A stretch of DNA of 64,000 bases from Candidatus Binatia bacterium. Its GTDB lineage: Bacteria > Desulfobacterota > Binatia > UBA1149 > CAITLU01. Both the position numbers and the translations under genes were made by a program. The DNA lies in assembly GCA_036493895.1 (NCBI GenBank), contig DASXOZ010000041.1, positions 22,054 to 86,053 of the forward strand, read 5' to 3'. The notes under the pieces were generated by a model. That model searched no databases. It was not told the DNA's origin and worked only from the letters and a program-made list of their open reading frames with translations. The first letter of the stretch is position 1, and each line of letters begins with the position of its first letter. Positions 11,456-48,880 of the stretch are shown here, in pieces.

Positions 11456-11493
11456 CTGTGATCGATCCGGCGCCGGCCGTCAGTTGCCGGCGT

Positions 11494-20072: not shown

Positions 20073-20308
20073 GCCTGCTCTCCGGTCTTTTCGACGATGC
20101 TGCGCAGCAGGTCATCGAAGTCCCGGATGGATTCTTCGTCTTCCGGCTCGAAGCAGATGTGGAAATGGTCCTCGATCGCGACGACGAGCGACATCCGCTG
20201 CAGGGAATCGAAATGGACGTCGAGACCGCCGTCGGGGACAGTGCCTTGCCAGCGCAGCTCGTCGCGCAGGATTTTCTCGACTTCTTCGCGCACGCGTTCG
20301 GGATTCAC
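20069..20308 (-). CDS. acyl carrier protein
   Basis: 79 aa with a DSL phosphopantetheine-attachment-type motif (VHFDSLQRMSLVVAIEDHF). GTG start at 20308 preceded by GAAGGA RBS. The listed 338-aa ORF upstream of this start is repeat read-through and is rejected. Confidence 0.75.
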   Translation of the reverse strand: MNPERVREEVEKILRDELRWQGTVPDGGLDVHFDSLQRMSLVVAIEDHFHICFEPEDEESIRDFDDLLRSIVEKTGEQA

Positions 20309-20991: not shown

Positions 20992-22067
20992 CACTGCACC
21001 AGCACGAGCTCGGAGCAAAAGCCCGGTCCAAGCGCGAGCAGCAAGCCGAGGGTATCCGGCTGCGGCCTGGCCTCTTCGATTGCATCGCGAAGGACGAACA
21101 GGACCGAGCTGCTCGACATGTTGCCGACTTCCGCGAGCGATCGCCTCGTCAGCGCGAGCTCGCCGGCGCCGAGACCGAGGCTCTCCTCGAACGCATCGAG
21201 GACCTTGGGGCCGCCGGGATGACAGATCCACGAGCGGATGTCCTGGCGAGCCACACCGTGCTCGTCCAGGAATCCGTGGACGTCGTCGGCAAGGTAGCTG
21301 CGCACGACATCGGGCACCGATGCGGAAAGCACGATGCGGAAGCCTCCGCTCGTGACGTCCCAGCCCATGACGCGCTCGGTATCGGGATAAAAGCGCGACC
21401 GTGACGCGAGCACGCGAGGTCCGCGCGCGCCGAGCCGCTTCGATCTGGCGGAGCCCGCCATCACGACCGCGGCGCCGCCGTCGCCGAACAGGCCGCTGGC
21501 GATGAGGTTCGGGATCGACAGATCGTCGCGCTGCAGGGTAAGCGAGCAGAGCTCGAGCGACACGAGCACCGCGACGTGATCCGGCCACGCCAGCAGGTAG
21601 TCGTGCACGCGGGCGATGCCTGCTGCACCGGCCACGCATCCGAGCCCGAACACGGGAATCCGTTTGACGTCGTTTCTCAGGCCGAGCCGGTTGACGAGCC
21701 TCGCATCGATCGAGGGCACGGCAATCCCCGTCACGCTCGTGAAGAAGATGCAGTCGACGTCGGATGCCGCGACGCCGGCTTCCTCGAGCGCGAGCGCGAG
21801 CGCACGCGCCGCGACGTCCGTGCCGACTCGCACGTAAGCGTCGTTGGCACCGCCGAATCCGTCCAGCGCAGCATAGTCCTCGATCGGCAGCGCCAGGTGG
21901 CGCCCACCCACGCAGACCGAACGGTGCAGGCTGTCGAGGCGCGCGGGGTTGTGGTGCTGTTTCCCCCAGAACAGGCGCAGCGCGTCCAGCAGCTCTTCCT
22001 GGCTGTAGTGGTGGGGCGGATGCGCTCCCGCAACCGAGACAATCGAGCTGTGCCTGCTGTCGTTCAT
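20988..22067 (-). CDS. type III polyketide synthase (chalcone-synthase-like; alkylresorcinol/alkylpyrone synthase type)
   Basis: 359 aa with active-site Cys region GLGCVAGAAG, His CHPGGPKVLD and Asn GNMSSSSVLFVL; ATG at 22067 verified. Confidence 0.9.
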   Translation of the reverse strand: MNDSRHSSIVSVAGAHPPHHYSQEELLDALRLFWGKQHHNPARLDSLHRSVCVGGRHLALPIEDYAALDGFGGANDAYVRVGTDVAARALALALEEAGVAASDVDCIFFTSVTGIAVPSIDARLVNRLGLRNDVKRIPVFGLGCVAGAAGIARVHDYLLAWPDHVAVLVSLELCSLTLQRDDLSIPNLIASGLFGDGGAAVVMAGSARSKRLGARGPRVLASRSRFYPDTERVMGWDVTSGGFRIVLSASVPDVVRSYLADDVHGFLDEHGVARQDIRSWICHPGGPKVLDAFEESLGLGAGELALTRRSLAEVGNMSSSSVLFVLRDAIEEARPQPDTLGLLLALGPGFCSELVLVQW

Positions 22068-22117: not shown

Positions 22118-22948
22118 TCACATCGGCTTTTCGCCGAAGTTGCAGCCCTCGGCCGGGGCAGACGCGGGGCCGGCTGCGCGCCCGAGGTCCGCCAGATCGG
22201 CAGGCCGGGAGCGCGGGACCCAGTACGGAACCCTCGAGCGGTAACGCTCGAAGCGCTCGCCGTAGAGAGCCAGGTAGCGTCGCTCCTTGTGGAGGGGGGC
22301 CAGCACGCAGTATCCCGTCCACGCGACGGCCACGATCAGGTGGTCGAGTGTCCAGACCGGAGCGGTCCACAGTATCAGCGCGAACGCGACATAGACGGGC
22401 TGCCTGACCCAGCGGAAGGTGCCGCGCGGCTCGAAAGCGGAGTAGCGCGGAGTTTTTCCCCGAACGACCGACCCCCAACCGAGATAGCCGGTCTGAACGC
22501 CGAGGCCGGCATCCATCATCGTTCGAAGCAGCAGCAGCCACGAAGCCGCGTAAGCGAGCGACGCGCCCGCAAGCGCGATGCCGCGAGGCGCCATCTGCCA
22601 CGTCGACAACGGGGACCACAACACGAACGTCGCCAGCAACTGCCAGGCCGCGATCGTGGCGAATGTCGTCGTACCCAGAGCTGCGCCGAGGCCGGAAGGC
22701 GCAAGGCGCGCAAGAGCGCGCCGGCCGCCGCGCGACAACAACAGCGAGTGCAGCACGGGGAACTGCACGAGCAGCAGTGCATCGGCGGCGGCGCCAGCGC
22801 TGCCTTGCAACGTGCCGATGCCGACGCGCATGCCGGTGTAGAGCCCGGCAATCATCGACGCGACGGCGGCCGCGAACGACAGGTGGCACGCGATGCCCCA
22901 CGCCAGCGCGACCCGGCGATGCGCGGGCGGCAATGATGTCGTGCTCAC
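22118..22948 (-). CDS. second ICMT/PEMT/NnrU-family membrane methyltransferase-like protein
   Basis: Multiple TM segments plus FRWVRQPVYVAFALILW motif; putative GTG start overlaps the YceI-like stop. The N-terminal extension in the listed ORF is rejected. Confidence 0.55.
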   Translation of the reverse strand: MSTTSLPPAHRRVALAWGIACHLSFAAAVASMIAGLYTGMRVGIGTLQGSAGAAADALLLVQFPVLHSLLLSRGGRRALARLAPSGLGAALGTTTFATIAAWQLLATFVLWSPLSTWQMAPRGIALAGASLAYAASWLLLLRTMMDAGLGVQTGYLGWGSVVRGKTPRYSAFEPRGTFRWVRQPVYVAFALILWTAPVWTLDHLIVAVAWTGYCVLAPLHKERRYLALYGERFERYRSRVPYWVPRSRPADLADLGRAAGPASAPAEGCNFGEKPM

Positions 22949-23661
22949 GAGGGCCGCCTTTGATCGCGCGAGAGCCCAGCGGCCGCGACTGCCGGCCAAG
23001 GCTGCTGCACGGCCGCAACGGCGGTGCTGATCCGCACGTGGCCGGTCACGTGGACGTCGTCCTCGACGCGGATGAGGCCCAGCACCGTCGGTGCTTCGAG
23101 CTGGAAATCCTTCAGAGACAGGTGCGCATCGGCATCGAAGGAAACATTCGGCCCCCTGGACTGCCAGTCGCTCACTGCGACGACCACGTCGCGCGAGACG
23201 CCGGCGATGACCACGACCCCATGGAGTTGTCCCTGCCCCCGCGCTGCGTCGGGATTGACGGCAGGAAACGATACGCGGATCGACGGCGCACGGTCGGCGT
23301 GCAGCATCTCGCGCATCTTTGCGTCGCGAGAGTCGTTGTCGGTGGTCATGCCGGAGACGGGAATGGAGAACTCGACGTCCCACGCACCTGCAGCGGCGGC
23401 CGGGTGCAGTGTCGTGGTCACGCGCGGCGCCTTGCCTTCGAAGTCGTGCAGCGAAGAGCTGCCGGCAAACGTGATGTCGCAGGTTGCCTGCGCAGAGCCG
23501 CTTTCCTGCGGTACTCCTTGTGGGACTCCTTGCGGGGCTTCCTGTGCGACGGAATCGCTGTGCGCACCGGCCGTGACCAGCAGGAGCGTGAGAAGCATCG
23601 CCGCACCGCGTGATGCCGGAACAAGACCTCCACCCATGGCGCATACCGATACGCGCAGCAT
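22945..23661 (-). CDS. YceI-family periplasmic lipid/polyisoprenoid-binding protein
   Basis: Signal peptide (RGAAMLLTLLLVTAGAHS) followed by YceI-like beta-barrel motifs (FAGSSSLHDFEG, TDNDSRDAKMRE). Confidence 0.65.
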   Translation of the reverse strand: MLRVSVCAMGGGLVPASRGAAMLLTLLLVTAGAHSDSVAQEAPQGVPQGVPQESGSAQATCDITFAGSSSLHDFEGKAPRVTTTLHPAAAAGAWDVEFSIPVSGMTTDNDSRDAKMREMLHADRAPSIRVSFPAVNPDAARGQGQLHGVVVIAGVSRDVVVAVSDWQSRGPNVSFDADAHLSLKDFQLEAPTVLGLIRVEDDVHVTGHVRISTAVAAVQQPWPAVAAAGLSRDQRRPS

Positions 23662-23947
23662 GCATGCGCTTCAAGGGACGAAGTGAAAATATCTTCATTG
23701 CGTGCGCTGCGTATGCGCGCACAGCACGTGCACGAGCAGTCCGGTAATTCACTGCGCGATGCCGATTCCCGCGCGTGACAAATTCGCGCACTGCAAGGTT
23801 CACGAAGTCGTCATCCGATGCGCGGGACGAAATGCGCGCAATTTGCGGCAAAAGGCGACGGTGCCGTGGGCTCGATCACGCGCACGCAACTGCGCCCGTA
23901 CGCTTGCTTCATCGTTCCGTCACGACGCGCACGGCCCGCAACGGACT

Positions 23948-25442: not shown

Positions 25443-27485
25443 TCAGCGACCCTGGCTGATTTCCCTTTCGGTCTGGTCGCCCTGCCCTTGCAGATCCTGC
25501 ACCGCAGCGGCCGCGCGGTCGTCGGGCTGAGGGGGCGGGACTTCGCCCTGCGTTACCCCTGCGTCAGGAGCCTGCGGCAGACCCTCGCCGCCGGCAGCGA
25601 GACTCCTCAGCCCGTTGTCGATCTGCTCACGGAATCGGTTGTGCATCTCCTGCAGGTCGGCGACCTGCACGCGCGGCTTGGCGCTTACCGGGCAGTCGCC
25701 CTGCTTGCTCGCAGTGACTCGTACGCCGATCGCATTGTCGTCACCGGGCGTGTCGTCGAGGCGGCCGAGCACGTCCCCGGCTGTGAGCTCGCACTCCTGA
25801 CCGTCGGGAGTCGGCACCGTCAGGCTGTCGGCGACGACGAACACCGAGATCGTCGGATCCAGCACCGGAAGCGCGACGGAGGATGCATCGGGCGGAGGCT
25901 GGTCAGGATACGAGGCAGCTTCGCGCTGCGCCTTCAGGTCGGCTTCGACCTGCGCGGCAATCGCCTGCTTGACCTCCGGGCTGAGTCGAACCGGGCCGCT
26001 CGACGGAGCGGGAGTGGGCTCGGGCTCGGCGGGCTGCGTCGCAGGCGGCGCCTGGTCGTAGCCCGGGGCAGCCGGCTGCTGGTAGTAGTCGGGTGCAGGA
26101 GCCTCAGGCGCATACACTGGCGGCGGTGCATAGGCCGCCTGCGACGCCGCGTACGCGAGCTGCAGGTTGGCCGCGAGCAGGTAGTCGGTCAGCCAGAAAG
26201 CCGCCGACGGATAGTAGGCCTCCGGCGCGAAATACCCTCCGTAGTAGCCGACCCACGGCGAGCCGTACCAACCCCAGTGATAGTAGACGTGCGACGGCCA
26301 CGGATCGCATGCCCATCCGTAGAACCCGGAGTGGTAGTAATGCGCGGGCGCGTAGACGTAGTAGGGATGGTCGTGCCAGACCGACTCGCGATACGCGTAG
26401 GCGTACGTATGCCCGCCGTGCACGTACGTGCGCTGCACGTACTGATGGCCGTGGTTCGTCATGTAATTTCGTTCGGTGAAGCCATGGTCCCTTCCCATGC
26501 TGACGACGCGCTGCCGGCCCGTCGGGTCGCGCCGCTCGACGACGCGATCCTGGGGCTTGAGCCCGCGTCGAACCTCGACGCCGTTCTGGGCGCGGATCTC
26601 TCGAACGCGGCCGCGATTGTCCGATCGTACTTCGTTGCCTTTTACCTGCGCGACCCTGCGCTCGGGCTGGCGGACACGACCCGCGGCCTGGGCGTTGTCG
26701 CGCTCGCCGCGGCGGGTCGGCTCGCCGGGAGTACCGTTTTCCCCGAGATGCTGCCCGCGCTCGCGACCCGTCGGACTCGCGTTGTCGGTGCCACGGTGGC
26801 CGTGCTCGACATCGGCGCCGCGCTCCTGGCCGCGCGCGCCGCGTTCCTGTCCAACGGCCCCGCGCTGTTGGCCCGCACCGCCCTCCTGTCCAACCGCGCC
26901 GCGCTGCTGGCCGTGCGTTGAGCGGTCGTTGTTTCGTCCGCGCTCGTCCTGCAGTTGCTGCGCCTGTCCGCCGTGTTTCTCGCCGCGGTTATCGAATCCC
27001 TGCGCCGCGCCGGCTTCGTGTCCGCCGCGGTCGGCGCCTCCCTGCCCATGCATCTGCTGGCCGTGCTGGCGCTGCTCCGGGAACTGCTGCTGCTGGGGAA
27101 CCGCCTGGCGATGCTCCTGCCGCTGCTCGGGAAACTGCTGCTGCTGCGGATAGGCCTGGCGATGGTCGGGGAACTGCTGAGGGGCGTGCGGCTGGAAAGC
27201 CGGGCGCTCGTGAACCTGGGGCTGCCCTCCGAAGGTCTGCTGGTGCTGGGGCGGGGCCGAGAAACCGCCTCCGCGGGGCGCAGCGGGCGCGGGTTGCCCG
27301 AACTGCGGCGCCTGGTGCTGGCCGCCGCCGCCCCCCCCACCCCCCTGCTGTTTCGGGTGCTCCGGCGCGTTCTGCACCGCTTGCGGGTGCTGTGCGAAGG
27401 CCGCGCAGGGGACCGCCAGCAAGGCGGCGACGGCGGCGATCGACACAAAGGGTCCAAAACAGGCGCGGCGGGTTGATTCCGACAT
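25443..27485 (-). CDS. secreted hypothetical protein, Gln/Gly/Arg-rich low complexity with an aromatic (Tyr/Trp/His)-rich segment
   Basis: ATG at 27485 with GGAGG RBS; signal peptide FGPFVSIAAVAALLAVPCAAFAQ; internal repeats (QQQQFPEQRQ, GQQRGAVGQE); no family recognised. Confidence 0.55.
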   Translation of the reverse strand: MSESTRRACFGPFVSIAAVAALLAVPCAAFAQHPQAVQNAPEHPKQQGGGGGGGGQHQAPQFGQPAPAAPRGGGFSAPPQHQQTFGGQPQVHERPAFQPHAPQQFPDHRQAYPQQQQFPEQRQEHRQAVPQQQQFPEQRQHGQQMHGQGGADRGGHEAGAAQGFDNRGEKHGGQAQQLQDERGRNNDRSTHGQQRGAVGQEGGAGQQRGAVGQERGARGQERGADVEHGHRGTDNASPTGRERGQHLGENGTPGEPTRRGERDNAQAAGRVRQPERRVAQVKGNEVRSDNRGRVREIRAQNGVEVRRGLKPQDRVVERRDPTGRQRVVSMGRDHGFTERNYMTNHGHQYVQRTYVHGGHTYAYAYRESVWHDHPYYVYAPAHYYHSGFYGWACDPWPSHVYYHWGWYGSPWVGYYGGYFAPEAYYPSAAFWLTDYLLAANLQLAYAASQAAYAPPPVYAPEAPAPDYYQQPAAPGYDQAPPATQPAEPEPTPAPSSGPVRLSPEVKQAIAAQVEADLKAQREAASYPDQPPPDASSVALPVLDPTISVFVVADSLTVPTPDGQECELTAGDVLGRLDDTPGDDNAIGVRVTASKQGDCPVSAKPRVQVADLQEMHNRFREQIDNGLRSLAAGGEGLPQAPDAGVTQGEVPPPQPDDRAAAAVQDLQGQGDQTEREISQGR

Positions 27486-33503: not shown

Positions 33504-35160
<1,657 letters not shown>

Positions 35161-35180
35161 TCACCACCTGCTTCAAGTTC

Positions 35181-35216
35181 GCACCCTTCCCGGCCTCTCA
35201 GGGCCGGATTAAAGAG
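35181..35216 (-). promoter_or_regulatory. candidate PyrR-binding anti-antiterminator hairpin in the pyr leader RNA
   Basis: Minus-strand RNA CUCUUUAAUCCGGCCCUGAGAGGCCGGGAAGG resembles the conserved PyrR binding loop (UUUAA..UCC..GAGAGGC..GGAAGG). Confidence 0.55.
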
Positions 35217-35455
35217 CCAATCGGCGCTCTCGGCGCCGCCGGCAGCCCGTTGCTGCCATCCGCGCTGATACGGGAGCCGGTTGTTCGTGTCAACGTCGTC
35301 CAGCGCCGCCGGATGCCGTTATGCAGCACAGCGACGGCGCTGATCCCCGCAGGCACCGCTGCGGCCAGTCCCAAGCCAGCGACCTTGCATCCGTTTCGAT
35401 CCAGCGGCCCGCGCGCGGCGCGCCGCCGCCGGGTGCGGCTCGCCGGAGCAGCCGT

Positions 35456-37279
35456 TCAGTCCTGCCGCGACGCCTCCGAGGCCTTCCATGTCTCGATTTC
35501 CTCCTTGGCGTAGCGGTAGCCCGCATCGACGATGCGGTCGAACGCCTTGAGGTCCATCATGCCGAACTCGCGCACCGGCGGAGCCAGCAGAAGGTCGGCG
35601 CGCCTTCCCATCTCGCGCACGCGCGACATCGTTCCGATCTCGGTCGCTTTCAGCGTCAGCGTCATCAGCGTCGGCACGCGGTACTTGCGCGCGAACGGCA
35701 GCAGGCGCCCGCGGATCACTGCCCACGGCGACGGCATCCGGCTGTACGGCACCGTGTATTTCCTCTGCGACGACAGGTCGACGGCCACGATGCGGCCGAC
35801 CGGCTTGGTCTGCATGATGTCCACCGGCATGTTGTTGATGACCGCTCCGTCCACGGCGAGCTGTCCGTCGACGACAGCCGGCGGCATCACCCCCGGCATC
35901 GACGTGCTCGCGCGCAGCGCGTCGGGCAGCGAGCCCGACTCGTGCACGTTGACCGAGCCGTCGTCGAGGTTGCAGGAGACCGCGAACATCGGGATCGGCA
36001 GGTCTTCGACGCGGCCGGGCAGGTACGTCTCGAGCATGCGCTCGAGCCTGCGGCCGCGAAGCAGCGCGATCAGCGGGAACGTGAAGTCGCCGAAGGGATT
36101 GGTCCGCGCGAATGCTTCGCGCACGGTCGCAATCGCCTCGTCGGGCGTCCATCCCTTGGCCAGGCACGCTCCCATGACCGCACCCATGCTGGTGCCGCCG
36201 ATCCAGTCGGTGCGGATCCCCGCCTCGCACAGCGCTTTGTAGACGCCGAGGTGCGCAAAGCCGCGCGCGGCACCGGCAGCCAGCACGAGGCCGACGGCGT
36301 TGCCCGACAGGATCCTCGCGATGCGGTCGAGCTCGTCGTCGCAATCGGACCGCACGTGGAGATGAACGTCGATGCGGCGGCGGGCGAGCCACGCGCCGGT
36401 GCCGACGATCGGCCTGGACTTGTCGCCCTGCAGCAGCACCAGCATGCGGCGCGCGTTGGAGGATGCGGTGGCTTCGTCCAGGTCGGACTCGTCGCTGCGG
36501 ATCGTCGGGTCGCTCGAAGCCTCGGCGACGTAGACCACGATGTCCGACTGCTGGATCGCGTAGACCGTCCACGGCGTCGACACCATCTCGCAGTCGTAAA
36601 GCAGGAACCGGTTGGCGCTCTCCTGGTCGTAAAGCCACTGGCGAAGACCCGGCGACAGCTGCCCGGCCGCTTCGAGCCTGTCCACCGGTGCGCCGAGGGA
36701 TCCGAGCTCGCCCGGCGACACCGCCAGCGTAGCGCCGAAACGCGAGAGCCCGTCGCGCAGCTGGTGCACGAAGCGACGAAGGTGCTCGGAGGCACCGATC
36801 GGGATCACCGAGATCGTGCGGAAGCGCCTCGATGCCGGCGCCACCCTGGCCGTGCGGTCCCTGAGCACCCGCGCCATGCGGCGCGCCAGCGTCATCACCA
36901 CCGCCGGATGGATGCGCGCGAGAGCCTCGAGCTCCGCCGGGCCGACTTCGAAGAGCTGGCTGGTGCGGATCGCGCGCACGTCAGCGCTTCGCGGTGCCCC
37001 GGTCAGCAGGCTGATCTCGCCGACGCTGCGGCCGGGTTCGATCTCGCCGAGCCGGGTGGCCGGGCTTCCTTCGGGCGCGCCCTCCGGCGTCATCCAGACT
37101 TCGAGGCGGCCTCGAGTCAGGAAGAACAGCGAGCCGCCGGGATCTCCCTGGCGGCACAGCCATTGGCCGCCGTCGAGCTCGATCACGCGCAGCCTGGATA
37201 GCACTTCGTCGAGCTCGTCGCTGCCCTCGCCGAAGTACATCTCGAAGAGCTGGCGTACCTTGCCGTCGGGCTCGCTCAT
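35456..37279 (-). CDS. cyclic-nucleotide-binding domain / patatin-like phospholipase fusion protein (NTE-like)
   Basis: ATG at 37279 verified. N-terminal CAP-type cNMP-binding domain (GEISLLTGAPRSADVRA); patatin oxyanion hole GLVLAAGAARGFAHLG, nucleophile GTSMG and Asp AVDGAV. The 374 codons upstream in the listed ORF are rejected. Confidence 0.85.
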   Translation of the reverse strand: MSEPDGKVRQLFEMYFGEGSDELDEVLSRLRVIELDGGQWLCRQGDPGGSLFFLTRGRLEVWMTPEGAPEGSPATRLGEIEPGRSVGEISLLTGAPRSADVRAIRTSQLFEVGPAELEALARIHPAVVMTLARRMARVLRDRTARVAPASRRFRTISVIPIGASEHLRRFVHQLRDGLSRFGATLAVSPGELGSLGAPVDRLEAAGQLSPGLRQWLYDQESANRFLLYDCEMVSTPWTVYAIQQSDIVVYVAEASSDPTIRSDESDLDEATASSNARRMLVLLQGDKSRPIVGTGAWLARRRIDVHLHVRSDCDDELDRIARILSGNAVGLVLAAGAARGFAHLGVYKALCEAGIRTDWIGGTSMGAVMGACLAKGWTPDEAIATVREAFARTNPFGDFTFPLIALLRGRRLERMLETYLPGRVEDLPIPMFAVSCNLDDGSVNVHESGSLPDALRASTSMPGVMPPAVVDGQLAVDGAVINNMPVDIMQTKPVGRIVAVDLSSQRKYTVPYSRMPSPWAVIRGRLLPFARKYRVPTLMTLTLKATEIGTMSRVREMGRRADLLLAPPVREFGMMDLKAFDRIVDAGYRYAKEEIETWKASEASRQD

Positions 37280-38622
37280 GTGGCCGCCTGCTGCGCCGGA
37301 GTCGTTCCGGTTGCCAGGGACTCCAGCGTTTCCAGGATGACGCCGATCGACTCGATGAAGTGTTCGAAGCGCTTTTCGTCCTCGGCGTCGAACGGCCGGC
37401 CGTCCTTGCGATTGAGGAGCTGCGCGACGCCGAACACTTCGCCGCGGCGGTTCTTCAGCGGGATGCAAAGGATGGTGCGGGTGCGAAAGCCCGATCTCAG
37501 GTCGACGTCGCGGTTGAAGCGGGGATCCGCGTACGCATCGTCGACGCGGATCGACTTTCCGCTCTCGGCCGATGACCCCGCAATCCCGCTCCCGATCGGA
37601 ATTCGCACGACGATGTCCTCGGGCAAGTCCTGGGCTACGCGCAGCCGGAGCGTCTTGCGCCCGGCCTCCACCACGAAGAGCGACGCGCGCTCGGCGTCGA
37701 GCAGCTGGCCGAACTTGCGCGTGAACGCGAACAGGCCCTGCTCGAGCATGCTCTGGAACGCGGCGTCGCTGGCCAGCGCCGTCGCTTCCATGAAGCGCTG
37801 CGATTCGTCGGTGAGCTGCTGCAGGAGCTCGCGGAACCCTTTCTCGTCGAGCCGGTCGACGACGCTGTCGAGGGACTGGCGCTGCCGGTTTTCGGCCAGC
37901 GTCTTCATCATCAGCTGGTTGTTCGCGATGACCGCATCGGTGAACGTCGACAGCCGGCCGTCCTCGAGGTGGACGATGCGGTCGGCGACGTCGAGGATGC
38001 GGTTGTCGTGGGTCACCAGCAGGATCGTCGTGCCTTTCTCCTTGGCCAGCGTCTTGATCCGGTCGACGACCTCGCGCCCGGACTCCTTGTCCAGAGACGC
38101 GGTGGGCTCGTCGGCGAGCAGGATGTCGGGCTGGGACGCCAGGGCCCTGGCGATGGCGACTCTCTGGCGCTGGCCGCCCGAGAGCTGCTCGCCCTTGTAG
38201 TGCAGGCGCTCGCCCAGGCCGACCGCGTGCAGCATGTCGACCGCGATCCTGTTCTCTTCGGCCGGGGAGTAGCGCTGTGTCACGCGCAGGCCGAGCTCGA
38301 CGTTCTGCACCGCGGTCAGGGCCTGCAGCAGGTTGTGCTGCTGGAAAATGAATCCGATGCGCCGGCGCGCCCTCTCCAGCGCGGCAGCGCCTGCCCCGCA
38401 CAACTCTTCGCCGAGGATGCGCACGCTTCCTTCCCGGGCCGACCGCAGCGCACCGACCAGCGTGAGCATCGTCGTCTTGCCGGAGCCGGACGGACCGGTG
38501 ACGATCACGATCTCGCCGCGCGGGATCTCCGTCGAGATGTCGAACAGGATCTGCTTGCGCAGGACGCCCTTGCCGAAGGCGTGGTTGAGGTTGCGTACGA
38601 CGATGGGCGCTTCGGCGCTCAT
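37276..38622 (-). CDS. ABC transporter ATP-binding protein (DevA/MacB/LolD type) with C-terminal GAF domain
   Basis: Walker A GPSGSGKTT, signature LSGGQRQRVAIARAL and Walker B ILLADEPT, then a ~200-aa GAF-like domain (IPIGSGIAGSSAESGKSIRVDDAYADPRFN...ILCIPL). ATG at 38622 overlaps the permease stop. Confidence 0.85.
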   Translation of the reverse strand: MSAEAPIVVRNLNHAFGKGVLRKQILFDISTEIPRGEIVIVTGPSGSGKTTMLTLVGALRSAREGSVRILGEELCGAGAAALERARRRIGFIFQQHNLLQALTAVQNVELGLRVTQRYSPAEENRIAVDMLHAVGLGERLHYKGEQLSGGQRQRVAIARALASQPDILLADEPTASLDKESGREVVDRIKTLAKEKGTTILLVTHDNRILDVADRIVHLEDGRLSTFTDAVIANNQLMMKTLAENRQRQSLDSVVDRLDEKGFRELLQQLTDESQRFMEATALASDAAFQSMLEQGLFAFTRKFGQLLDAERASLFVVEAGRKTLRLRVAQDLPEDIVVRIPIGSGIAGSSAESGKSIRVDDAYADPRFNRDVDLRSGFRTRTILCIPLKNRRGEVFGVAQLLNRKDGRPFDAEDEKRFEHFIESIGVILETLESLATGTTPAQQAAT

Positions 38623-39770
38623 CAGAACACGTCCGCGGGGTCGAGGCGCCGCACCTTTCGCACCGCCAGAAGCCCGGAGATCGCGCACATCGCGAGCGTC
38701 AGGACGAGGACCGCCGCGGCCCGCCCGGCCGTGATGTGCAGCGGCATCATCGTCGCGGACGCCGCCGCGCCGTAGAGGAAATAGACAGCGACCTGTCCGG
38801 GGATGTAGCCGAGCACGCCGAGGATCGCCGCCTGCTGGATCACGATGCCCGAGACGAAGCGATTCGGGTAGCCCATCGCGCGCAGCGTGCCGTACTCCCG
38901 CAGGTGCTCGGAGACGTCGGCGAACAGGATCTGGTAGACGATGATGGCCCCGACGACGAAACCCATCACCGCGCCGAACGCGAAGATGTAGCCGACGGGG
39001 GTCGCCGAGTTCCAGTAGTCGATCTCGTGCTGGACGAACTCGGCCTTGGTCAGGACGAAGATGTCCTTCGGCAGCAGCTTCTCGATCTTCTCCCTCACGG
39101 CGACCGGGTCGGACCCCGGCTTCAGCTTGATCAGCCCGAGCTCGATGTCGTTGCGCGAGCGCGTGGGAAACAGCCGAAGCCAGTTGTCCTCGCTCGTGAT
39201 GATGTTGCCGTCGATTCCGAACGACGGTCCCATCTCGAAGAGGCCGACCACCTTGATCTGCCGGTCGTTGAGCTCGGCCTGCAGGGGATGGGCCGGGTCG
39301 AAGGTGGCCGCTACCGGGCCGAATTCCGGCCGGGAGTGGTCGTCGAACAGCAGCACGTCCTCCTTGTCGAGCAGCTTGCGCCCCTCGCGAAACCCTTTCG
39401 TGTCGAGGAGGTCGTCCTCCGGGTGGATGCCGAAGATCGTGATCGCACGATGCTCGTTGTTCCACGGGTTCTTCCAGATTCCGGGCGCGATCCACACGGG
39501 GCTGACCCGCTCGACTTCGCTCACGCCAAGCGCTTCGTAGAGACGCCGGATCGAGAACGGCTCGGGCCGGACGATGAAGATGCTGTTGTGGCTGAATAGC
39601 GCGATGTCGTAGTCGAGTCGCTCGTGGTAGCGCACGGCGCTCTCGAACAGGGCCGAACGGAAGCCGAGCTGCATCATGATCAGCAGCACGGCGAAGCCGA
39701 TGCCGGAGACGGCCACCAGCAGTCGCATCGGGCTGTGACGAAGCTGGAGCCAGCCGAGCGGAAGCCTCAC
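38622..39770 (-). CDS. ABC transporter permease, FtsX/DevC family
   Basis: 382 aa with an N-terminal TM, a large periplasmic domain, then 3 C-terminal TM helices (FtsX fold). Confidence 0.75.
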   Translation of the reverse strand: MRLPLGWLQLRHSPMRLLVAVSGIGFAVLLIMMQLGFRSALFESAVRYHERLDYDIALFSHNSIFIVRPEPFSIRRLYEALGVSEVERVSPVWIAPGIWKNPWNNEHRAITIFGIHPEDDLLDTKGFREGRKLLDKEDVLLFDDHSRPEFGPVAATFDPAHPLQAELNDRQIKVVGLFEMGPSFGIDGNIITSEDNWLRLFPTRSRNDIELGLIKLKPGSDPVAVREKIEKLLPKDIFVLTKAEFVQHEIDYWNSATPVGYIFAFGAVMGFVVGAIIVYQILFADVSEHLREYGTLRAMGYPNRFVSGIVIQQAAILGVLGYIPGQVAVYFLYGAAASATMMPLHITAGRAAAVLVLTLAMCAISGLLAVRKVRRLDPADVF

Positions 39771-39838
39771 GGTCGCTTCATCCGGTCACTCTCGCTGCCA
39801 GCCGCATCCTTCACACCTCCGCGCCGCACGGTCGTTTC

Positions 39839-40852
39839 TCAGGGGTGGATCAGGACATCGACCTGGAGGTTGCTGAGGCTGGCCACAGGCTTCGGGTCGT
39901 CCAGCAGCACTTCGACTTCGACGATGCGGGCGTCCTTGCGCGCGGCGGGGTCGGTGCCCGTCGCATCCTGCTTGCGCACCTGGAGCCTGACGCGTTCGAC
40001 CTTTCCCGAAAGAGGCGCAGCCAGCGCGCTGCTCGTCACGGTCGCCTTCTGCCCGACCTTGACGCGGCCGATGTCGGTCTCGTAGATCTCGGCGATCGCG
40101 TACATGCGGTCGACGTGCCCCATTTCGAGGACTCCGTCCGCGCCCATCAGTTCTCCCGGGCGCTTGAGGATCCTCAGCACGCGTCCGCCCATCGGCGCTT
40201 TCACGTAGCAGCGGTCGAGCTCGGCCTGCGCGCGATCGACCTCCGCCCGGGCCACCGCGACCTTGAGGTCCGCCGCCTGGGTCGCGATCTTCGCCGACGT
40301 GCAGGAGCCGGACAGCGCTTTCGCGTCGCCCGCCGCGATGTCGGCCTCTTCGGTGGATGCCACTCCGGTCTTGAGAAGATTCGAGCGTCGCGTCGAGGTC
40401 CTCTGCGCAACGTCGGAGCGCGAACAGATGTCCTGCTCCTGCCCCAGCGCCATCGCCGACTCCTTCTCGGCAAGAGCGAGCTCGGCCTTGCGCAGGCCCA
40501 CCTGGGCCTGCTCGCTCGTCGCGGTGTCGGTGACGGCGAGCAGCTGGCCTTCGGTCACGTCGTCGCCGGCTTCGACCAGCAGCTGGCGCACCACGGCGCC
40601 GTTGACGGCGTTGACCATCGACGGCGCCGACACGCGGATGATGCCGTGCTCGGGCTCGATGCGGCCGAGGGCCGACACGGCATCGCCGGCGACGGGAGCG
40701 CCTTCGGATGCCTGCGCGGTCGCGGCCGCGGCGGCTGGGGCCGCGGCGAGCGCCAGGCACAGCAGGGCAGCGGCAAATCCGCCGCGATACGTACGTCGAT
40801 GTGGAACCATGCTGAGGAGCACCCTGGACAGCCCGAACTCCGGGTTCGGCAA
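39839..40852 (-). CDS. HlyD/DevB-family periplasmic adaptor (membrane fusion protein)
   Basis: N-terminal anchor/signal, coiled-coil region (AELALAEKES...AELDRCYVKAP) and beta-barrel/lipoyl-like motifs; start codon uncertain (TTG at 40852 or ATG 14 codons in). Confidence 0.7.
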   Translation of the reverse strand: MPNPEFGLSRVLLSMVPHRRTYRGGFAAALLCLALAAAPAAAAATAQASEGAPVAGDAVSALGRIEPEHGIIRVSAPSMVNAVNGAVVRQLLVEAGDDVTEGQLLAVTDTATSEQAQVGLRKAELALAEKESAMALGQEQDICSRSDVAQRTSTRRSNLLKTGVASTEEADIAAGDAKALSGSCTSAKIATQAADLKVAVARAEVDRAQAELDRCYVKAPMGGRVLRILKRPGELMGADGVLEMGHVDRMYAIAEIYETDIGRVKVGQKATVTSSALAAPLSGKVERVRLQVRKQDATGTDPAARKDARIVEVEVLLDDPKPVASLSNLQVDVLIHP

Positions 40853-41004
40853 GGCACAGCCTCGGGACCGGGTCCCCGAGACGAAACAAAACCCACCTGG
40901 ATCGAGGCGCGGTTCCTACTCTCGGCCGGCCGTCGTCGCAAGTTTGTCGCGAGCCGGGACCGTGACCGCCGCCACGTCCGTCCGCGAGCCGCACGGCGGC
41001 CCGG

Positions 41005-43523: not shown

Positions 43524-44444
43524 CTACGACCGCGAGCGAAAGAAGTCAACCGTCGCGGCAAGCCCGTCGTCGAGACGGACTTGCGGACTCCAGCCGATCT
43601 CGCGCCGGGCTTTGTCGAAGCTGAGCACGCTGCGCCGCACCTCGCCTTCCTTGGCCGGCGCGTGCTCGGGCGCGACGTCGTGGCCCGTCAGGCGCCGCAG
43701 CTTGGCGTGCAGCTCGACGACGCTCGTCTCCTGGCTCGTGCCGATGTTCACTGCTCCGCAGCAGGCAGACGTGAGAGCCGCAAGGTTCGCACGCACGACG
43801 TCACCGACGAACACGTAGTCGCGCGTCTGCTGGCCGTCGCCGTAAATCTGGCAGCTTGTGCCCGCCAGCAGCGCCCTGGAGAAGATCGAGACGACACCGG
43901 CCTCACCGTGAGGATCCTGGCGCGGCCCGTAGACGTTCGCATAGCGCAGAGCCACGTAGCGCATTCCGCAGAAACGCCGGTAATATTCGAGGTAGTGCTC
44001 GCCGGTGAGCTTGCTGACGCCGTACGGGCAGACGGGGATCGTCGAATGCTCCTCGGTCGTCGGGAACTGGTCGACTTCGCCGTAGACAGTGCCGCCCGAC
44101 GAGGCGAACAGCACCGCGCCGGTGCCGGCGCGGCGGCAGGCTTCGAGAAGCCGCACGAACCCCACGACGTTGACGTCGGCATCGAACGCCGGGTCCTCGA
44201 CCGAAAAACGCACGTTCATCTGCGCGGCGTGGTGGCAGAGCACGTCGGGTTTCTCGCTCGCGACGACGGCGGAAGCCTCGCCGCTGCGGATGTCGAGCTG
44301 GTGGAAGCGCGCAGCCGCCGGCACCTGGGCGCGGTGCCCGCTCGAGAGATTATCGAGGACGAGGACGTCGTGCCCCGCCGCGACGAACGCATCGGCGAGG
44401 TGGGAGCCGATGAACCCGGCGCCGCCCGTGACGAGGATCTTCAT
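43524..44444 (-). CDS. NAD-dependent epimerase/dehydratase (UDP-glucose 4-epimerase-like)
   Basis: Motifs [16 protein letters not shown] and YxxxK ([11 protein letters not shown]); start at the internal ATG. Confidence 0.8.
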
Positions 44445-45385
44445 GCCGCCGAGGTCAGCTTGTTCCGGAAGAACTCGATGGTGCGCGCCAGGCCGTCGTC
44501 CAGTACCACTTTCGGCTCCCAGCCGAGCAGGCGCCGGGCGCGGCCGATGTCGGGCTGGCGCACCTTCGGGTCGTCCTCGGGCAACTCGCGGTAGACGATC
44601 CTCGAGCCGGTGCCGGCCAGGTCGCGGATCTTTTCCGCGAAGTCCTGGATGGTCATTTCCGCCGGATTGCCGAGGTTGACCGGCATCGTCTCGTCCGACC
44701 ACAGCAGCCGCGTCAGGCCTTCGACGAGATCGTCGACGAAACAGAAGCTGCGCGTCTGCGAGCCGTCGCCGTAGACGGTGATTTCCTCGCCCTTCAAGGC
44801 CTGGCACATGAAATTCGGCACGACGCGGCCGTCGCGCATGCGCATGCGCGGACCGTAGGTGTTGAAGATCCTCGCGATGCGCGTCTGCACGCCGTGGGTG
44901 CGATGGTAGGCCATCGTCATCGCCTCGAGAAACCGCTTGGCCTCGTCGTAGACGCCGCGCGGCCCGATCGGGTTGACGTTGCCCCAGTAGTCTTCCCGCT
45001 GGGGGTGCACCAGCGGGTCGCCGTACACTTCAGAAGTGGACGCGACCAGGATGCGTGCGTTCTTCTCGCGAGCCAGCCCGAGCGCCTTGTGGGTGCCGAG
45101 CGAGCCGACTTTCAGCGTCTGGATCGGAAGCTCGAGGTAATCGACGGGGCTTGCCGGCGACGCGAAGTGCAGCACGGCATCCAGCGGCCCCTTTACGTAG
45201 ACGTAGTTGGTGATGTCCTGCTGCAGGAACGTGAACTTCGGATTCGCGAAAAGATGCGCGATGTTGTCGCGGTCGCCGGTGAGCAGGTTGTCGACGGCGA
45301 TCACGTCGTGACCGTCGGCCAGGTGACGCTCGCAAAGGTGGGAGCCGATGAAACCGGCTCCACCGGTGATCAGTACGCGACCCAT
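44441..45385 (-). CDS. UDP-glucuronate decarboxylase (UDP-xylose synthase)-like SDR
   Basis: Motifs [19 protein letters not shown] and YDEAKR, typical of UXS/ArnA-decarboxylase-type extended SDRs. Confidence 0.8.
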
Positions 45386-45400
45386 CGCTGCGCTTCCTGC

Positions 45401-46714
45401 CTAGGCCGCCGCTCCACGGCCGATCGGGTAATACGTGAACCCGCGCCCGTGCATGTCCCGGGGCTCCCACAGGTTGCGACCGTCGAAGATCACCGGAGCC
45501 TTGAGCATGCCGCGGATGCGGTCGAAGTCGGGATGACGGAACTCGTTCCACTCGGTGACGATGCACAGCGCGTCGGCGCCCGGCAGCGCGTCGTAGTTCT
45601 TCGTGCAGTAATTGACCGACTTGCCGAAGAAGCCGCGCGCGACTTCCATCGCCTCCGGATCGTGCACGTTGACGTTGCAGCCGGCGGCCAACAGCTCGCG
45701 CACCAGGCCGATCGACGGCGCCTCGCGCATGTCGTCGGTGCGCGGCTTGAACGCCAGTCCCCAGACCGCGAACGTGCGCCCGGCCAGGTTGCCGTCGTAG
45801 TGCGCGGCGACCTTCTCGAACAGGCGGCGTTTCTGGCGGTTGTTGACGTCGTCGACGGTGCGCAGCAGCGAGAAGTCCATCCCCGCCTCGGTGGCGGTGT
45901 GGATGATCGCGCGTACGTCCTTCGGGAAGCAGGAGCCGCCGTAGCCGAGGCCCGGATAGAGGAAATGCATGCCGAGGCGGCGGTCCGTGCCGATGCCCTG
46001 GCGCACCGATGCAACGTCGGCGCCTACCCTTTCGCACAGGTTGGCGATCTCGTTGATGAAGGAGATCTTGACCGCGAGCAGCGAGTTGGCCGCGTACTTG
46101 GTCATTTCGGCGCTGGCATTGTCCATCACGAGGATCGGAGCGCCGCCGCGCACGAACGGCGCGTACAGGTCCTTCATGATGTCGGCGGCCTTCTGGCTGG
46201 CAGCGCCGATGACGACGCGGTCCGGCTTGAGGAAGTCCTCGATGGCCGCGCCTTCCTTCATGAACTCCGGGTTGGAGACGACGTCGAAGGGATGGGCCGT
46301 GCATTCGGCCAGAATGCTGCGCAGCGCAGCCGCCGTGCCGACGGGCACCGTGCTCTTGGTCACGACGACGCGGTAGCCGTCCATCGCGTTGGCGATGTCG
46401 CGCGCCGCCTGGTGCACGTAGCGCATGTCGGGCGCGCCGTCATGCTCACCTTGCGGAGTTCCGACTGCGATGAAGCAGACCAGCGACTCGGCCACCGCTT
46501 TGCGGACGTCGGTCGTGAACGCGAGGCGTCCCTCCTCGACGTTACGCTGGATCAGCTCCTCGAGCCCAGGCTCGTAAATCGGAACTTCGCCGGCCTTGAG
46601 CCTGGCGATCTTCTTCTCGTCGATGTCGACGCATGCGACGTCGTTGCCGCTCTCGGCGAAGCAAGTACCGGCGACCAGCCCGACGTAGCCGGTGCCGATG
46701 ACACAGATCTTCAC
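45401..46714 (-). CDS. ugd: UDP-glucose 6-dehydrogenase
   Basis: N-terminal GTGYVG Rossmann fold, catalytic Cys region GGSCFPKD and UDP-binding C-domain; GTG start with GAGGAG RBS. Confidence 0.9.
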   Translation of the reverse strand: MKICVIGTGYVGLVAGTCFAESGNDVACVDIDEKKIARLKAGEVPIYEPGLEELIQRNVEEGRLAFTTDVRKAVAESLVCFIAVGTPQGEHDGAPDMRYVHQAARDIANAMDGYRVVVTKSTVPVGTAAALRSILAECTAHPFDVVSNPEFMKEGAAIEDFLKPDRVVIGAASQKAADIMKDLYAPFVRGGAPILVMDNASAEMTKYAANSLLAVKISFINEIANLCERVGADVASVRQGIGTDRRLGMHFLYPGLGYGGSCFPKDVRAIIHTATEAGMDFSLLRTVDDVNNRQKRRLFEKVAAHYDGNLAGRTFAVWGLAFKPRTDDMREAPSIGLVRELLAAGCNVNVHDPEAMEVARGFFGKSVNYCTKNYDALPGADALCIVTEWNEFRHPDFDRIRGMLKAPVIFDGRNLWEPRDMHGRGFTYYPIGRGAAA

Positions 46715-46965
46715 TCAGTCGTCTCCTCAAATCTGCGGCGCGCGCCAACTCTCGCGTGCCAACGGGCGGTAAAAAGCCTGTTCCCGCAAGGCCTTACCCG
46801 CCTAGTTGTGAATGCGAGAAAGTATCCGCATCCCCCTGCCCCGGCAAGTCGCCGCAGCGCTCCTTGGCAGAAATTTGCGCGCTTTTGCCCTGCGGACAGC
46901 CTTCTGCGCATCCCCGGGGCGGCTGCGCGACGGCAAACGGCTGTTCGGCCAGCGTACGCGGTGCG

Positions 46966-47928
46966 TCAGGCGGAGGATCGGCCGTCGCGAGGCGCCAGGT
47001 CCTCGGCCACGGTGTAAATCGGCTTGCCTTGGCTCTCGTGGTAGGTGCGCGCGAGCATTTCGCCGATCAGCCCCATCATCACGAGCTGGACGCCGGTCAC
47101 GACGAGCAGCACGGCGAGCATCAGGATCGGCCGGTTCGCAAGCGGGTAGCCGAGCACGAGCTTCTCGAAACCGAGCATCGCCAGGATCAGCGCGCCGGCG
47201 CCGCCGAGCACGACGCCCCAGACGCCGAAGACGTGGATCGGTCGCGTCGCGTACACCGAAAGGAAACGCACCGTCAGCAGGTCCAGCACGACGCGCACCA
47301 CGCGCGAGATGCCGTACTTGGAGGTGCCTGCCACGCGCGGGCGGTGATTGACCACCACCTCGTCGACGCGGGCACCGAGATCGGCCGCAATGGCCGGGAT
47401 GAAACGGTGCATCTCTCCGTACAGGCGCAGCTCCCGCGCGAGCGGTCCGCGGTACGCCTTCAGCATGCAACCGTAGTCGTGCACGTGGACGCCGGTGATC
47501 GCACGGATCATCCAGTTGGCAGCCATCGACGGCAGCAGCCTGGTCATCCAGTCGTCCTGGCGATCCAGGCGCCAGCCCGATACCAGGTCCCAGCCTTCCT
47601 CGAGCCTCGCGATCAGCCTGGCGATGTCGCGCGGATCGTTCTGGCGATCGGAGTCGAGCGTGACGACGATGTCTCCTGTCGTGCGCTCGAGCCCTGCCGC
47701 GACGGCGGCCGTCTGGCCGAAATTGCGGCGGAAGCGCACCACGCGCACGTGCGCATCGCGCTCGTGGATCTCGCGCAGCACGTCGAAGGAGCGGTCGGAG
47801 GAGCCGTCGTCGACATAGACGATCTCGTAGCTGCGGCCGAGCGCCGCCAGCGCCTGCGTCAGCTCGTCGTGCAGCGGCCGGAGGTTTTCCTCCTCGTTGA
47901 AGACCGGCAGCACGACCGAGACGTCCAC
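46966..47928 (-). CDS. GT2-family polyprenol-phosphate glycosyltransferase (DPM1/ArnC-like)
   Basis: Motifs VVLPVFNEEENL, YVDDGSSD, DxD (TLDSDRQ) and two C-terminal TM helices. Confidence 0.8.
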   Translation of the reverse strand: MDVSVVLPVFNEEENLRPLHDELTQALAALGRSYEIVYVDDGSSDRSFDVLREIHERDAHVRVVRFRRNFGQTAAVAAGLERTTGDIVVTLDSDRQNDPRDIARLIARLEEGWDLVSGWRLDRQDDWMTRLLPSMAANWMIRAITGVHVHDYGCMLKAYRGPLARELRLYGEMHRFIPAIAADLGARVDEVVVNHRPRVAGTSKYGISRVVRVVLDLLTVRFLSVYATRPIHVFGVWGVVLGGAGALILAMLGFEKLVLGYPLANRPILMLAVLLVVTGVQLVMMGLIGEMLARTYHESQGKPIYTVAEDLAPRDGRSSA

Positions 47929-47941
47929 CGAAAAACTCCGC

Positions 47942-48880
47942 TCAGCTCTGGAAGTCGGTGATCGCCATGAACTGGCGGAAACGCTTGTCGATGTCTTCGC
48001 GCGCGAGGCCTTTCAGGCGTCCGAGGCCGAAATCCTCGACGGTAAACGACGCGACGACGGTTCCGTAGACGATCGCGCGCCGGAGCGTGCGGCTGGTGAC
48101 TTCTCCGTCGGCCGCGAGGCTGCCGAACAGGCCGCCGGCGAACGTGTCGCCGGCGCCTGTGGGATCGACGACGTTTTCGAGCGGAAAGGCCGGCACCGCG
48201 AAGATCTCCTTGTCCGAGAACTGCAGGGCGCCGTACTCACCGCGCTTGACGATCAGGTGACGCGGCCCCATCGCGAGGATCTTGCGCGCGGCGCGCACCA
48301 CGTTGTTTTCGCCCGCCAGCAGCATCGCTTCCGAATCGTTGATGCTCAGCAGGTCCACCCGCGCGAGCAGCTCGCGAAGCTCGGCCGGCGCGGCGTGGAT
48401 CCAGTGGTCCATCGTATCGGCGCCGACGTACTCGGGAGCCTCGAGCTGGCCGAGTACGTCCGACTGCAACGAAGGCTGGATGTTGGCCAGGAACACGAAC
48501 TCGCTGCCGCGGTACGACTCGGGCAGCTTGGGCTGGAAGCTCTCGAAGACGTTGAGCTTCAGGTCCAGCGTGTCGCGCACGTTCATGTTCTCGTGGTAGC
48601 GGCCGTGCCAGCGGAACGTCTCGCCGGCGGTCATCTCGAGCCCGTCGAGGTTGATCCCGCACTCGACGAGAAAGCGGCGCTCGGCTTCCGGAAAGTCCCC
48701 GCCGACGACGCCGACGAGGTTGACCGGCGCAAAGAAGCTCGCCGCCACCGAGAAGTAGCTGCAGGCGCCGCCGAGCACCCCTGCCGCACTGCCTCCGGGA
48801 GTCTCGACGTGGTCGATCGCCACCGATCCGACCACGCATACCGATTTTGCCGATGAAGCCTTTTTTGCCGTCTTCGCCAT
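47942..48880 (-). CDS. PfkB-family carbohydrate/nucleoside kinase
   Basis: ATG at 48880 verified; ribokinase-family motifs (GG di-Gly near the N-terminus; DPTGAGDTFAGG); the listed upstream extension is rejected. Confidence 0.75.
   Translation of the reverse strand: MAKTAKKASSAKSVCVVGSVAIDHVETPGGSAAGVLGGACSYFSVAASFFAPVNLVGVVGGDFPEAERRFLVECGINLDGLEMTAGETFRWHGRYHENMNVRDTLDLKLNVFESFQPKLPESYRGSEFVFLANIQPSLQSDVLGQLEAPEYVGADTMDHWIHAAPAELRELLARVDLLSINDSEAMLLAGENNVVRAARKILAMGPRHLIVKRGEYGALQFSDKEIFAVPAFPLENVVDPTGAGDTFAGGLFGSLAADGEVTSRTLRRAIVYGTVVASFTVEDFGLGRLKGLAREDIDKRFRQFMAITDFQS

Follow-up and report, generated by a model that had tools for sequence, protein, structure and literature searches.

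DevBCA-HgdD, the tripartite exporter of heterocyst glycolipids in Anabaena, is the closest described counterpart of three of the four genes considered here, devB, devC and devA-GAF. In a 64,000-nucleotide stretch of a Candidatus Binatia bacterium genome (GenBank assembly GCA_036493895.1, contig DASXOZ010000041.1, positions 22,054 to 86,053; hereafter the window), these three are followed by a gene for a lipase resembling neuropathy target esterase (NTE). The two pumps belong to the same curated families, share the gene order B-C-A (the three genes being adjacent in the window) and a tripartite design, and have an unlinked outer-membrane factor; the TolC-like channel for the Binatia pump is presumably encoded elsewhere in this genome. 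The Binatia module differs in its non-cyanobacterial host, in the coupled lipase gene, in the lack of a glycolipid synthase among the neighbours scanned, and in a DevA that carries an extra 224-residue linker and GAF domain beyond the 220-position model of its family. MacAB-TolC, a type VII ATP-binding cassette (ABC) pump working by mechanotransmission, has a permease of the same fold family (MacB_PCD, FtsX), a HlyD-type adaptor and the same layout of 1+3 transmembrane (TM) segments with a periplasmic domain. However, MacB fuses the nucleotide-binding domain (NBD) to the permease and has no ligand-sensing domain, and its sequence similarity to the module is very low (E 7e-4).

Regulatory domains attached to an NBD are known from other transporters. 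In MetN (the C2 domain), ModC and MalK, a dimeric ligand-binding domain placed after the NBD controls NBD closure. The module shares this concept, but those proteins are importers with unrelated folds that undergo trans-inhibition by their own substrate, whereas here a sensor of the second-messenger type is attached to an exporter-type ATPase. The lipase, for its part, follows the domain logic of NTE/PNPLA6/Swiss-cheese, in which one or several cyclic-nucleotide-binding (CNB) domains, a PF24179 domain and a patatin esterase succeed one another. NTE deacylates phosphatidylcholine and lysophosphatidylcholine (PMC6995513). The eukaryotic proteins are anchored in the endoplasmic reticulum and have several CNB domains, while the bacterial lipase has a single one, lacks an N-terminal anchor or any other hydrophobic segment above threshold, and is translationally coupled to an ABC pump.

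We think it somewhat probable that the module is a cyclic-nucleotide-controlled envelope-lipid system made up of two co-expressed machines, a pump and a lipase. The curated models place the identities of the pump subunits and of the lipase domains beyond doubt. DevB scores 206.6 bits with TIGR02971 (cut-off 129), DevC 455.9 bits with TIGR01185 (cut-off 290.35) and DevA 328.2 bits with TIGR02982 (cut-off 295.8), residues 7-224 of DevA aligning with positions 2-219 of the 220 in the model. The original prediction of a HlyD adaptor, an FtsX permease and an ABC ATPase is thus borne out at the level of specific families. The JGI gene calls of the source record agree with the four genes; the likely start of devB is the ATG at 40810 (323 aa, also the JGI call), the TTG at 40852 giving the longest open reading frame (ORF). 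DevB has one N-terminal hydrophobic segment and DevC four predicted TM segments in the 1+3 arrangement of MacB, with a periplasmic domain of about 215 aa; MacB (5LIL) is the only solved relative of DevC. In the NBD of DevA, ABC_tran matches residues 28-175, and the Walker A, ABC signature, Walker B-Glu and H-loop motifs are intact in the translation. Unlike a single-domain NBD of about 220-250 aa, DevA has residues 226-448 lying outside TIGR02982. Neither DevA-GAF nor the lipase has a TM segment (hydrophobicity above threshold), which implies that both sensor-bearing proteins are cytoplasmic.

The C-terminal extension of DevA is a GAF domain, as had been proposed, with 39.7 bits for GAF_2 (cut-off 28.6) and 35.5 bits for GAF_3, and profile matches place it in the subfamily that binds cyclic nucleotides (cNMP). 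The best solved matches of the linker and GAF profile are CyaB2 (1YKD, 8e-51) and the phosphodiesterases (PDEs) PDE5 (2.5e-38), PDE2A (1e-35), PDE6 (4e-29) and PDE10A (1e-28). The top 20 solved matches are all cNMP-binding GAFs (CyaB2, PDE2/5/6/10; E 1e-16 to 1e-51), with the exception of one metal-dependent phosphohydrolase, and GAFs that do not bind cNMP (DevS, YebR) reach only 1e-4 or worse. The cNMP GAFs of PDE2/5/6/10/11 and of CyaB1/CyaB2 are thus its nearest solved relatives, and their NKFDE-type motif can be aligned column by column, from PDE5, with N404, R405, F411, D415 and E416 of DevA-GAF, the first four being invariant and E416 at least 90% conserved among 30 homologues. According to PMC11977230, this motif sets cNMP-binding GAFs apart. 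In the PDEs and cyanobacterial cyclases, nucleotide binding allosterically activates the attached catalytic domain (PMC4411481, PMC11977230). There the GAFs stand in tandem at the N-terminus of a PDE or cyclase, whereas the module has a single C-terminal GAF on an ABC ATPase, and in its motif the Lys is replaced by Arg (R405).

This substitution is one of the points on which a different view of the domain could be built, namely that the GAF is not a cNMP sensor, that it binds another small molecule or acts as a scaffold for dimerisation or regulation of the NBD, and that the sensing of cNMP is left to the lipase alone. GAF domains as a class accept a wide range of ligands, and the NKFDE residues make no contact with the nucleotide (PMC11977230). 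We nevertheless consider this quite improbable, given that the top solved matches are nearly all cNMP-binding GAFs, that DevS and YebR are far weaker matches, and that cyclases and additional cNMP-binding genes occur in the neighbourhood of related loci. On present evidence, the extension belongs to the cNMP-binding subfamily.

The last gene of the module had been described as a fusion of a cNMP-binding domain to a patatin lipase. Both domains are indeed present, but the protein is not a two-domain one: an NTE P-loop-like domain, overlooked at first, lies between them, all three models scoring above their gathering thresholds. The presence of this domain in the middle of the protein makes it a lipase of the neuropathy-target-esterase type rather than a simple two-domain fusion, and the order CNB, NTE P-loop-like, patatin is that of NTE/PNPLA6. 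The phosphate-binding cassette reads VGEISLLTGAPRSA, and its G87, E88 and R97 do not vary in either of two alignments, of 52 and 54 sequences. The patatin motifs GGTSMG and DGA, which hold the catalytic Ser-Asp dyad, and the oxyanion motif AGAARG are present; all 54 family members keep S364, D477, G478, R339 and G340. An AlphaFold2 model of the lipase (predicted local distance difference test, pLDDT, 79) matches solved structures domain by domain only: the patatin domain resembles PlpD and the CNB domain resembles CRP-type proteins, with CapV and CapE as weaker matches of lower rank; the full architecture matched no solved structure. Source annotations of these proteins are generic ('ATP-binding cassette domain-containing protein', 'NTE family protein', 'patatin-like phospholipase family protein').

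The reading frames of the module are tightly joined. Four co-directional genes had been predicted here, packed with overlaps of 0-4 nt throughout. The ORFs and the source gene calls confirm the genes, and the two overlaps that had been singled out, between the permease stop and the ATPase start and between the ATPase stop and the patatin start, can be read directly in the sequence (Table 1). Between devB and devC, however, there is a gap and not an overlap: the devB stop (39839..39841) is followed by a 68-nt spacer up to the devC GTG at 39770, or by 110 nt if the later ATG of the JGI gene call is used. The two overlaps recur in related loci, where the 1-nt overlap of devC and devA is kept in 56 of 62 and an overlap of devA-GAF and the lipase gene (4-nt or 1-nt) in 37 of 54, and where the spacing between devB and devC is variable.

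Table 1. Position of the genes, domains, junctions and flanking elements of the module in the window
Feature	Coordinates	Strand	Description
devB	39839..40852	-	periplasmic membrane-fusion HlyD-type adaptor, DevB family; TIGR02971, HlyD_D23, HlyD_3
devC	38622..39770	-	FtsX/MacB-type permease; TIGR01185 (full model covered), FtsX, MacB_PCD
devA-GAF	37276..38622	-	448 aa; ABC ATPase with C-terminal linker and GAF
devA NBD	37948..38622	-	residues 1-225; TIGR02982, ABC_tran E 1e-31
Linker, GAF and stop codon	37276..37947	-	helical linker, residues 226-305; GAF, residues 306-431 (37330..37707)
NTE-like lipase gene	35456..37279	-	607 aa; PF00027, PF24179, PF01734
Lipase cNMP-binding domain (PF00027)	36914..37180	-	residues 34-122
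Lipase NTE P-loop-like domain (PF24179)	36341..36823	-	residues 153-313; 66.7 bits (gathering score 27)
Lipase patatin domain (PF01734)	35816..36289	-	residues 331-488
devC stop/devA start overlap, TGATG	38620..38624	-	read directly; 1 nt in common, shared A at 38622; gtgttcTGATGagc
devA-GAF stop/lipase start overlap, ATGA	37276..37279	-	read directly; 4 nt in common (cacATGAgc)
Terminator-like hairpin, then GGTTTTGTTT	40894..40909	-	between the lepB stop (41005) and devB; consensus scan only, weak evidence
PyrR-binding attenuator-like element	35092..35219	-	RF00515, E 6.7e-4; 45 bits, short of the gathering score (54)

The terminator-like hairpin downstream of lepB is the probable upstream boundary of the transcription unit. 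At the other end, the PyrR-binding element suggests a classic PyrR-attenuated pyr operon in this Binatia genome and would mark the downstream boundary of the module. With such an element on either side, the four genes plausibly form one transcription unit. No promoter was found in the region by a sigma-70 consensus scan, which is uninformative for such a GC-rich organism. The PyrR attenuator-like element itself, directly upstream of pyrR, comes with a hairpin and a T-run, and a TTGACA-N17-TATCAG sequence stands ahead of it (about 35265..35293).

How general the arrangement is was assessed by searching species-level genomes with the linker and GAF profile, which matched 202 of them, and by a tblastn census of the best 80 of these 202 genome matches, 50 loci of which had enough flanking sequence on both sides. 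The extension is found in Binatia, in Myxococcota and, above all, in uncultured Gammaproteobacteria (Lysobacterales/Xanthomonadales, Wenzhouxiangellaceae, Woeseiaceae, Steroidobacteraceae, Porticoccaceae and Chromatiales), that is, in at least 200 species-level genomes of three phyla. DevA-GAF has more than 120 cluster representatives, 68-84% identical, every one of which combines ABC_tran with GAF, and its conservation across phyla is about 70%; the protein of the window is 100% identical to one recorded for a Candidatus Binatia metagenome-assembled genome. In an exhaustive search with the same profile, multi-GAF proteins dominate, and the family collapses to very few representatives at 50% identity.

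The conservation of the neighbourhood, a check that the original prediction had called for, is clear: devB, devC, devA-GAF and the lipase gene occur together in 38 of the 50 loci, with conserved junctions. In five of the loci (L054, L068, L070, L072, L080) the lipase gene stands upstream of devB, from which it appears that adjacency survives rearrangement. Six loci have devBCA-GAF and no lipase, and in one the lipase is present with devB and devC unrecognised. The module is flanked by dus and ETF-QO in Lysobacterales and by lepB and pyrR in Binatia, and this variation among lineages means that the linkage is not merely frozen synteny. The distance matrices of DevA-GAF and of the lipase are correlated (Mantel r 0.79; none of 2000 permutations reached the observed value); this congruent divergence shows co-inheritance of ATPase and lipase, as judged from the sequences, which is not by itself proof of joint function. 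Incidental adjacency, in which unrelated genes happen to be packed together in a compact genome, would agree with the density of same-strand genes in the window, but the same four genes adjoin in Binatia, Myxococcota and many gammaproteobacterial families, in differing contexts, and the census effectively refutes this explanation, whose probability we regard as next to negligible.

In 13-14 of the related loci, three further genes precede the module: a class III cyclase with a receiver (REC) domain, transcribed divergently from the module, a hybrid kinase of the architecture MASE2-GAF-HisKA-HATPase-REC, and a single-domain receiver. The catalytic domain of the cyclase gives a close full-length alignment (E 2.9e-65) with the Cya2 guanylate cyclase (GC) of Synechocystis (2W01). 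Glu occupies the base-specificity site (GGTIDEF) and Gly or Ala the second site, and the FGRY transducer element is kept. The cyclases thus share with Cya2 the catalytic domain, the E-G pair and FGRY, but their N-terminal input is a receiver, that of Cya2 a CHASE2 domain, and the Tyr that enhances GC activity in Cya2 is replaced. The 'E-G pair' specifies the substrate of Cya2, and the Tyr raises its GC activity (PMC4215837); the change E488K, at the Glu site, turns the enzyme into an adenylate cyclase (PMC5995499). Because the Tyr is lost, the associated cyclases may make cGMP or cAMP. The comparison with Cya2 as a whole favours cGMP as the probable messenger, with cAMP possible. The GAF of the hybrid kinase gave no informative GAF matches.

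That related loci place a Cya2-like REC-cyclase and a sensor kinase beside the module strengthens the view that it is gated by a second messenger. The original prediction had suggested a second-messenger-gated machine for lipid remodelling or export, a suggestion which the domain assignments and these neighbours now support. The cultured Wenzhouxiangella sp. XN201 has a complete eight-gene set (L089; JAAIVI010000017.1, 794..11128), consisting of the divergent REC-Cya2-like cyclase, the MASE2-GAF hybrid kinase, the REC protein, devB, devC, devA-GAF, the lipase gene and a convergent DUF3307 gene. The extended version is also found at L001, L003, L011, L015, L017, L019 and L069. Regarding the outer members of the neighbourhood, the DUF3307 membrane-protein gene recurs downstream in more than 12 loci. 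In a Xanthomonadales metagenome-assembled genome, the module has on either side a small gene that encodes a cNMP-binding domain by itself (L002, 3375..3755 and 11140..11502), hinting at further cNMP receptors nearby.

Starting from gene content, domain identities, motif conservation, linkage and overlapping junctions as observed, we infer ligand binding, a direction of regulation, a kind of substrate and a lipid shared by pump and lipase in the following way. DevB, DevC and DevA would form a tripartite pump of the DevBCA/MacAB type that works with a TolC-like outer-membrane channel and, by analogy with DevBCA and MacB, may export a substrate that is amphipathic or a lipid, taking it from the inner membrane or the periplasm. 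Binding of cNMP to a GAF dimer would gate NBD closure and hence the activity of the pump. Binding of cNMP to the CAP-type domain would switch on the lipase, which would then remove acyl chains from (lyso)phospholipids on the cytoplasmic side of the inner membrane. The overlapping reading frames would ensure co-expression of the two machines, which probably act on the same envelope-lipid pool, the pump possibly handling products or substrates of the lipase. In the related genomes, the messenger could be supplied by the adjoining REC-cyclase under control of the MASE2-GAF hybrid histidine kinase.

A number of observations weigh against the module being such a cyclic-nucleotide-controlled envelope-lipid system, in addition to the arginine found in the NKFDE motif of DevA-GAF and the replaced tyrosine of the associated cyclases. 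Neither a cyclase nor a histidine kinase was found by tblastn in the 64-kb window. The AlphaFold2 model of DevA-GAF is poor (pLDDT 55; the underlying alignment was shallow, with no sequence below 68% identity), and the NBD-GAF geometry is not readable from it. In about five of the 50 loci, devA-GAF stands as an orphan. The lipase gene is absent from three of five syntenic Binatia loci, the slot after devA-GAF being occupied by the lipase gene in the window and in L009, by a TolC-like outer-membrane efflux protein gene in L008 (8702..10465) and by nothing in L006 and L010; in another Binatia genome a lipase, 54% identical, stands alone. The lipase-free loci and the stand-alone lipase indicate that the pump is not strictly dependent on an adjacent lipase, which is a frequent, not an obligatory, partner of the pump.

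The same observations can be read as meaning that pump and lipase share only cNMP regulation and co-expression. The exported substrate, whether a glycolipid, a peptide, a toxin or, as for MacAB, a xenobiotic, would then be unrelated to the lipase reaction, and the lipase would remodel phospholipids separately. Besides the dispensability of the lipase at the locus in some Binatia and its solitary occurrence elsewhere, MacB-type pumps have diverse substrates, and the present data point to no particular one. However, the translational coupling of devA-GAF to the lipase gene is conserved, and the adjacency of the genes holds when their order is permuted; such linkage is more typical of one pathway or complex. 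We regard a merely common regulator as unlikely; of the rival explanations, it is the only one that remains substantial.

Two observations on the loci with departing gene content may be added. Two of the Binatia loci have an inserted gene, for a DEAD-box helicase, that separates lepB from devB (L006, 3614..4864; L008, 3738..4988). Orphan devA-GAF genes lacking devB, devC and the lipase gene are found at L065 (7233..8645), L023 (7326..8645), L046 and L056; one orphan, that of the cultured Elongatibacter sediminis, has dus on one side and ETF-QO on the other, and others come directly after a TetR-HlyD-ABC-ABC2 transporter cluster. The orphans may be remnants of the module, or their GAF-ATPase may serve another permease.

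Nucleotide messengers are likewise coupled to a patatin lipase in the cyclic-oligonucleotide-based anti-phage signalling system (CBASS), through CapV and CapE, and to a CNB effector in Pycsar. CapV differs in binding cyclic oligonucleotides directly, with no CNB domain. A lipid-targeting effector module had been the second option of the original prediction. In the sense of defence or toxicity, it would be an anti-phage, abortive-infection or toxin effector of the CBASS/Pycsar type, in which a cyclic nucleotide made upon infection activates a membrane-destroying patatin lipase. The weak structural matches to CapV and CapE, which are nucleotide-activated patatins, would fit, as would the resemblance of the lipase CNB domain to those of Pycsar effectors (50.7 bits in PADLOC). 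These are domain-level matches, however, and PADLOC recognised no system. CBASS was rejected because PADLOC gave no CD-NTase or CapV match (E<=1e-3) and because housekeeping genes, not a defence island, surround the module. Pycsar was rejected because similarity to the PycTIR, TIR-effector and PycC models (28-51 bits) is confined to the CNB domain, no cyclase lies in the window, and the cyclases of related loci are REC-Cya2-like. The GAF extension has no relatives among the 2.9 million viral contigs searched. The surroundings, with lepAB, pyrR-pyrB-pyrC-carAB and tricarboxylic acid (TCA) cycle genes in conserved synteny, are those of a housekeeping region. The very high conservation of DevA-GAF from phylum to phylum also speaks against a defence function, as does an associated cyclase that is placed under two-component control and resembles Cya2, not a CD-NTase. 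The effector option is thus left unsupported and appears highly improbable.

Returning to the cyclic-nucleotide-controlled envelope-lipid system, its more far-reaching version can be offered only tentatively, and we would not call it probable. The pump containing DevA-GAF would be the first ABC exporter on which a cyclic nucleotide acts directly as the gating signal, by way of a GAF domain carried by the ATPase, and this exporter would form, with the CNB-gated lipase, the output pair of a cGMP pathway coordinating lipid hydrolysis and export. The pathway would run from the MASE2-GAF kinase to the REC-guanylate cyclase, to cGMP, and on to pump and lipase, and might serve, for instance, envelope remodelling in stress or during the formation of resting cells. 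To our knowledge, 3',5'-cGMP signalling is rare in bacteria and has very few known effectors, and we know of no earlier description of a tripartite ABC exporter that a second messenger controls directly. The component parts are of known kinds. The fusion of a GAF to DevA and its conserved coupling are apparently new: in the searchable literature, no published description was found of the fusion, or of its coupling to an NTE-like lipase and, in many genomes, a Cya2-like cyclase, in keeping with the initial failure to match the four-part arrangement to a described system.

The module is a good candidate for a bacterial membrane-lipid system controlled by cGMP or cAMP. Two different classical cNMP receptor folds, GAF and CAP-type, are attached in it to two machines that would each act on membrane lipids. 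It also gives the bacterial counterparts of NTE/PNPLA6, a human disease protein, a genomic setting with a pump as partner and probably a cyclase upstream, which offers a route to their function. The full eight-gene set of the cultured XN201 makes the hypothesis directly testable.

The window has a G+C content of 66-69%. The module is flanked by housekeeping genes of the same strand, lepA and lepB upstream and pyrR, pyrB, pyrC, carA and carB downstream. Farther out lie TCA-cycle genes, an EF-G family elongation-factor GTPase gene, kup, recG and a homoserine dehydrogenase gene. No glycolipid synthase was seen among the window genes scanned; together with the Binatia host and the lepAB and pyr/car neighbours, this speaks against a functional heterocyst glycolipid exporter.

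Upstream of lepA, genes for a UDP-glucose/GDP-mannose dehydrogenase, two NAD-dependent epimerase/dehydratases and a family-2 glycosyltransferase (43524..48012, minus strand) form a sugar-nucleotide cluster reminiscent of genes for envelope glycolipids or for the sugar modification of lipid A. Two long ORFs on the minus strand (25443..27485, 680 aa, and 22118..23851, 577 aa) have no Pfam match at E<=1e-5; they may be spurious, the sequence being GC-rich, or encode uncharacterised proteins. Finally, at 17188..21639 (minus strand), an ICMT-family methyltransferase domain within a 444-aa ORF adjoins genes for an AMP-binding (acyl-adenylate-forming) enzyme and an FAD monooxygenase, in what may be a small lipid or secondary-metabolite cluster.

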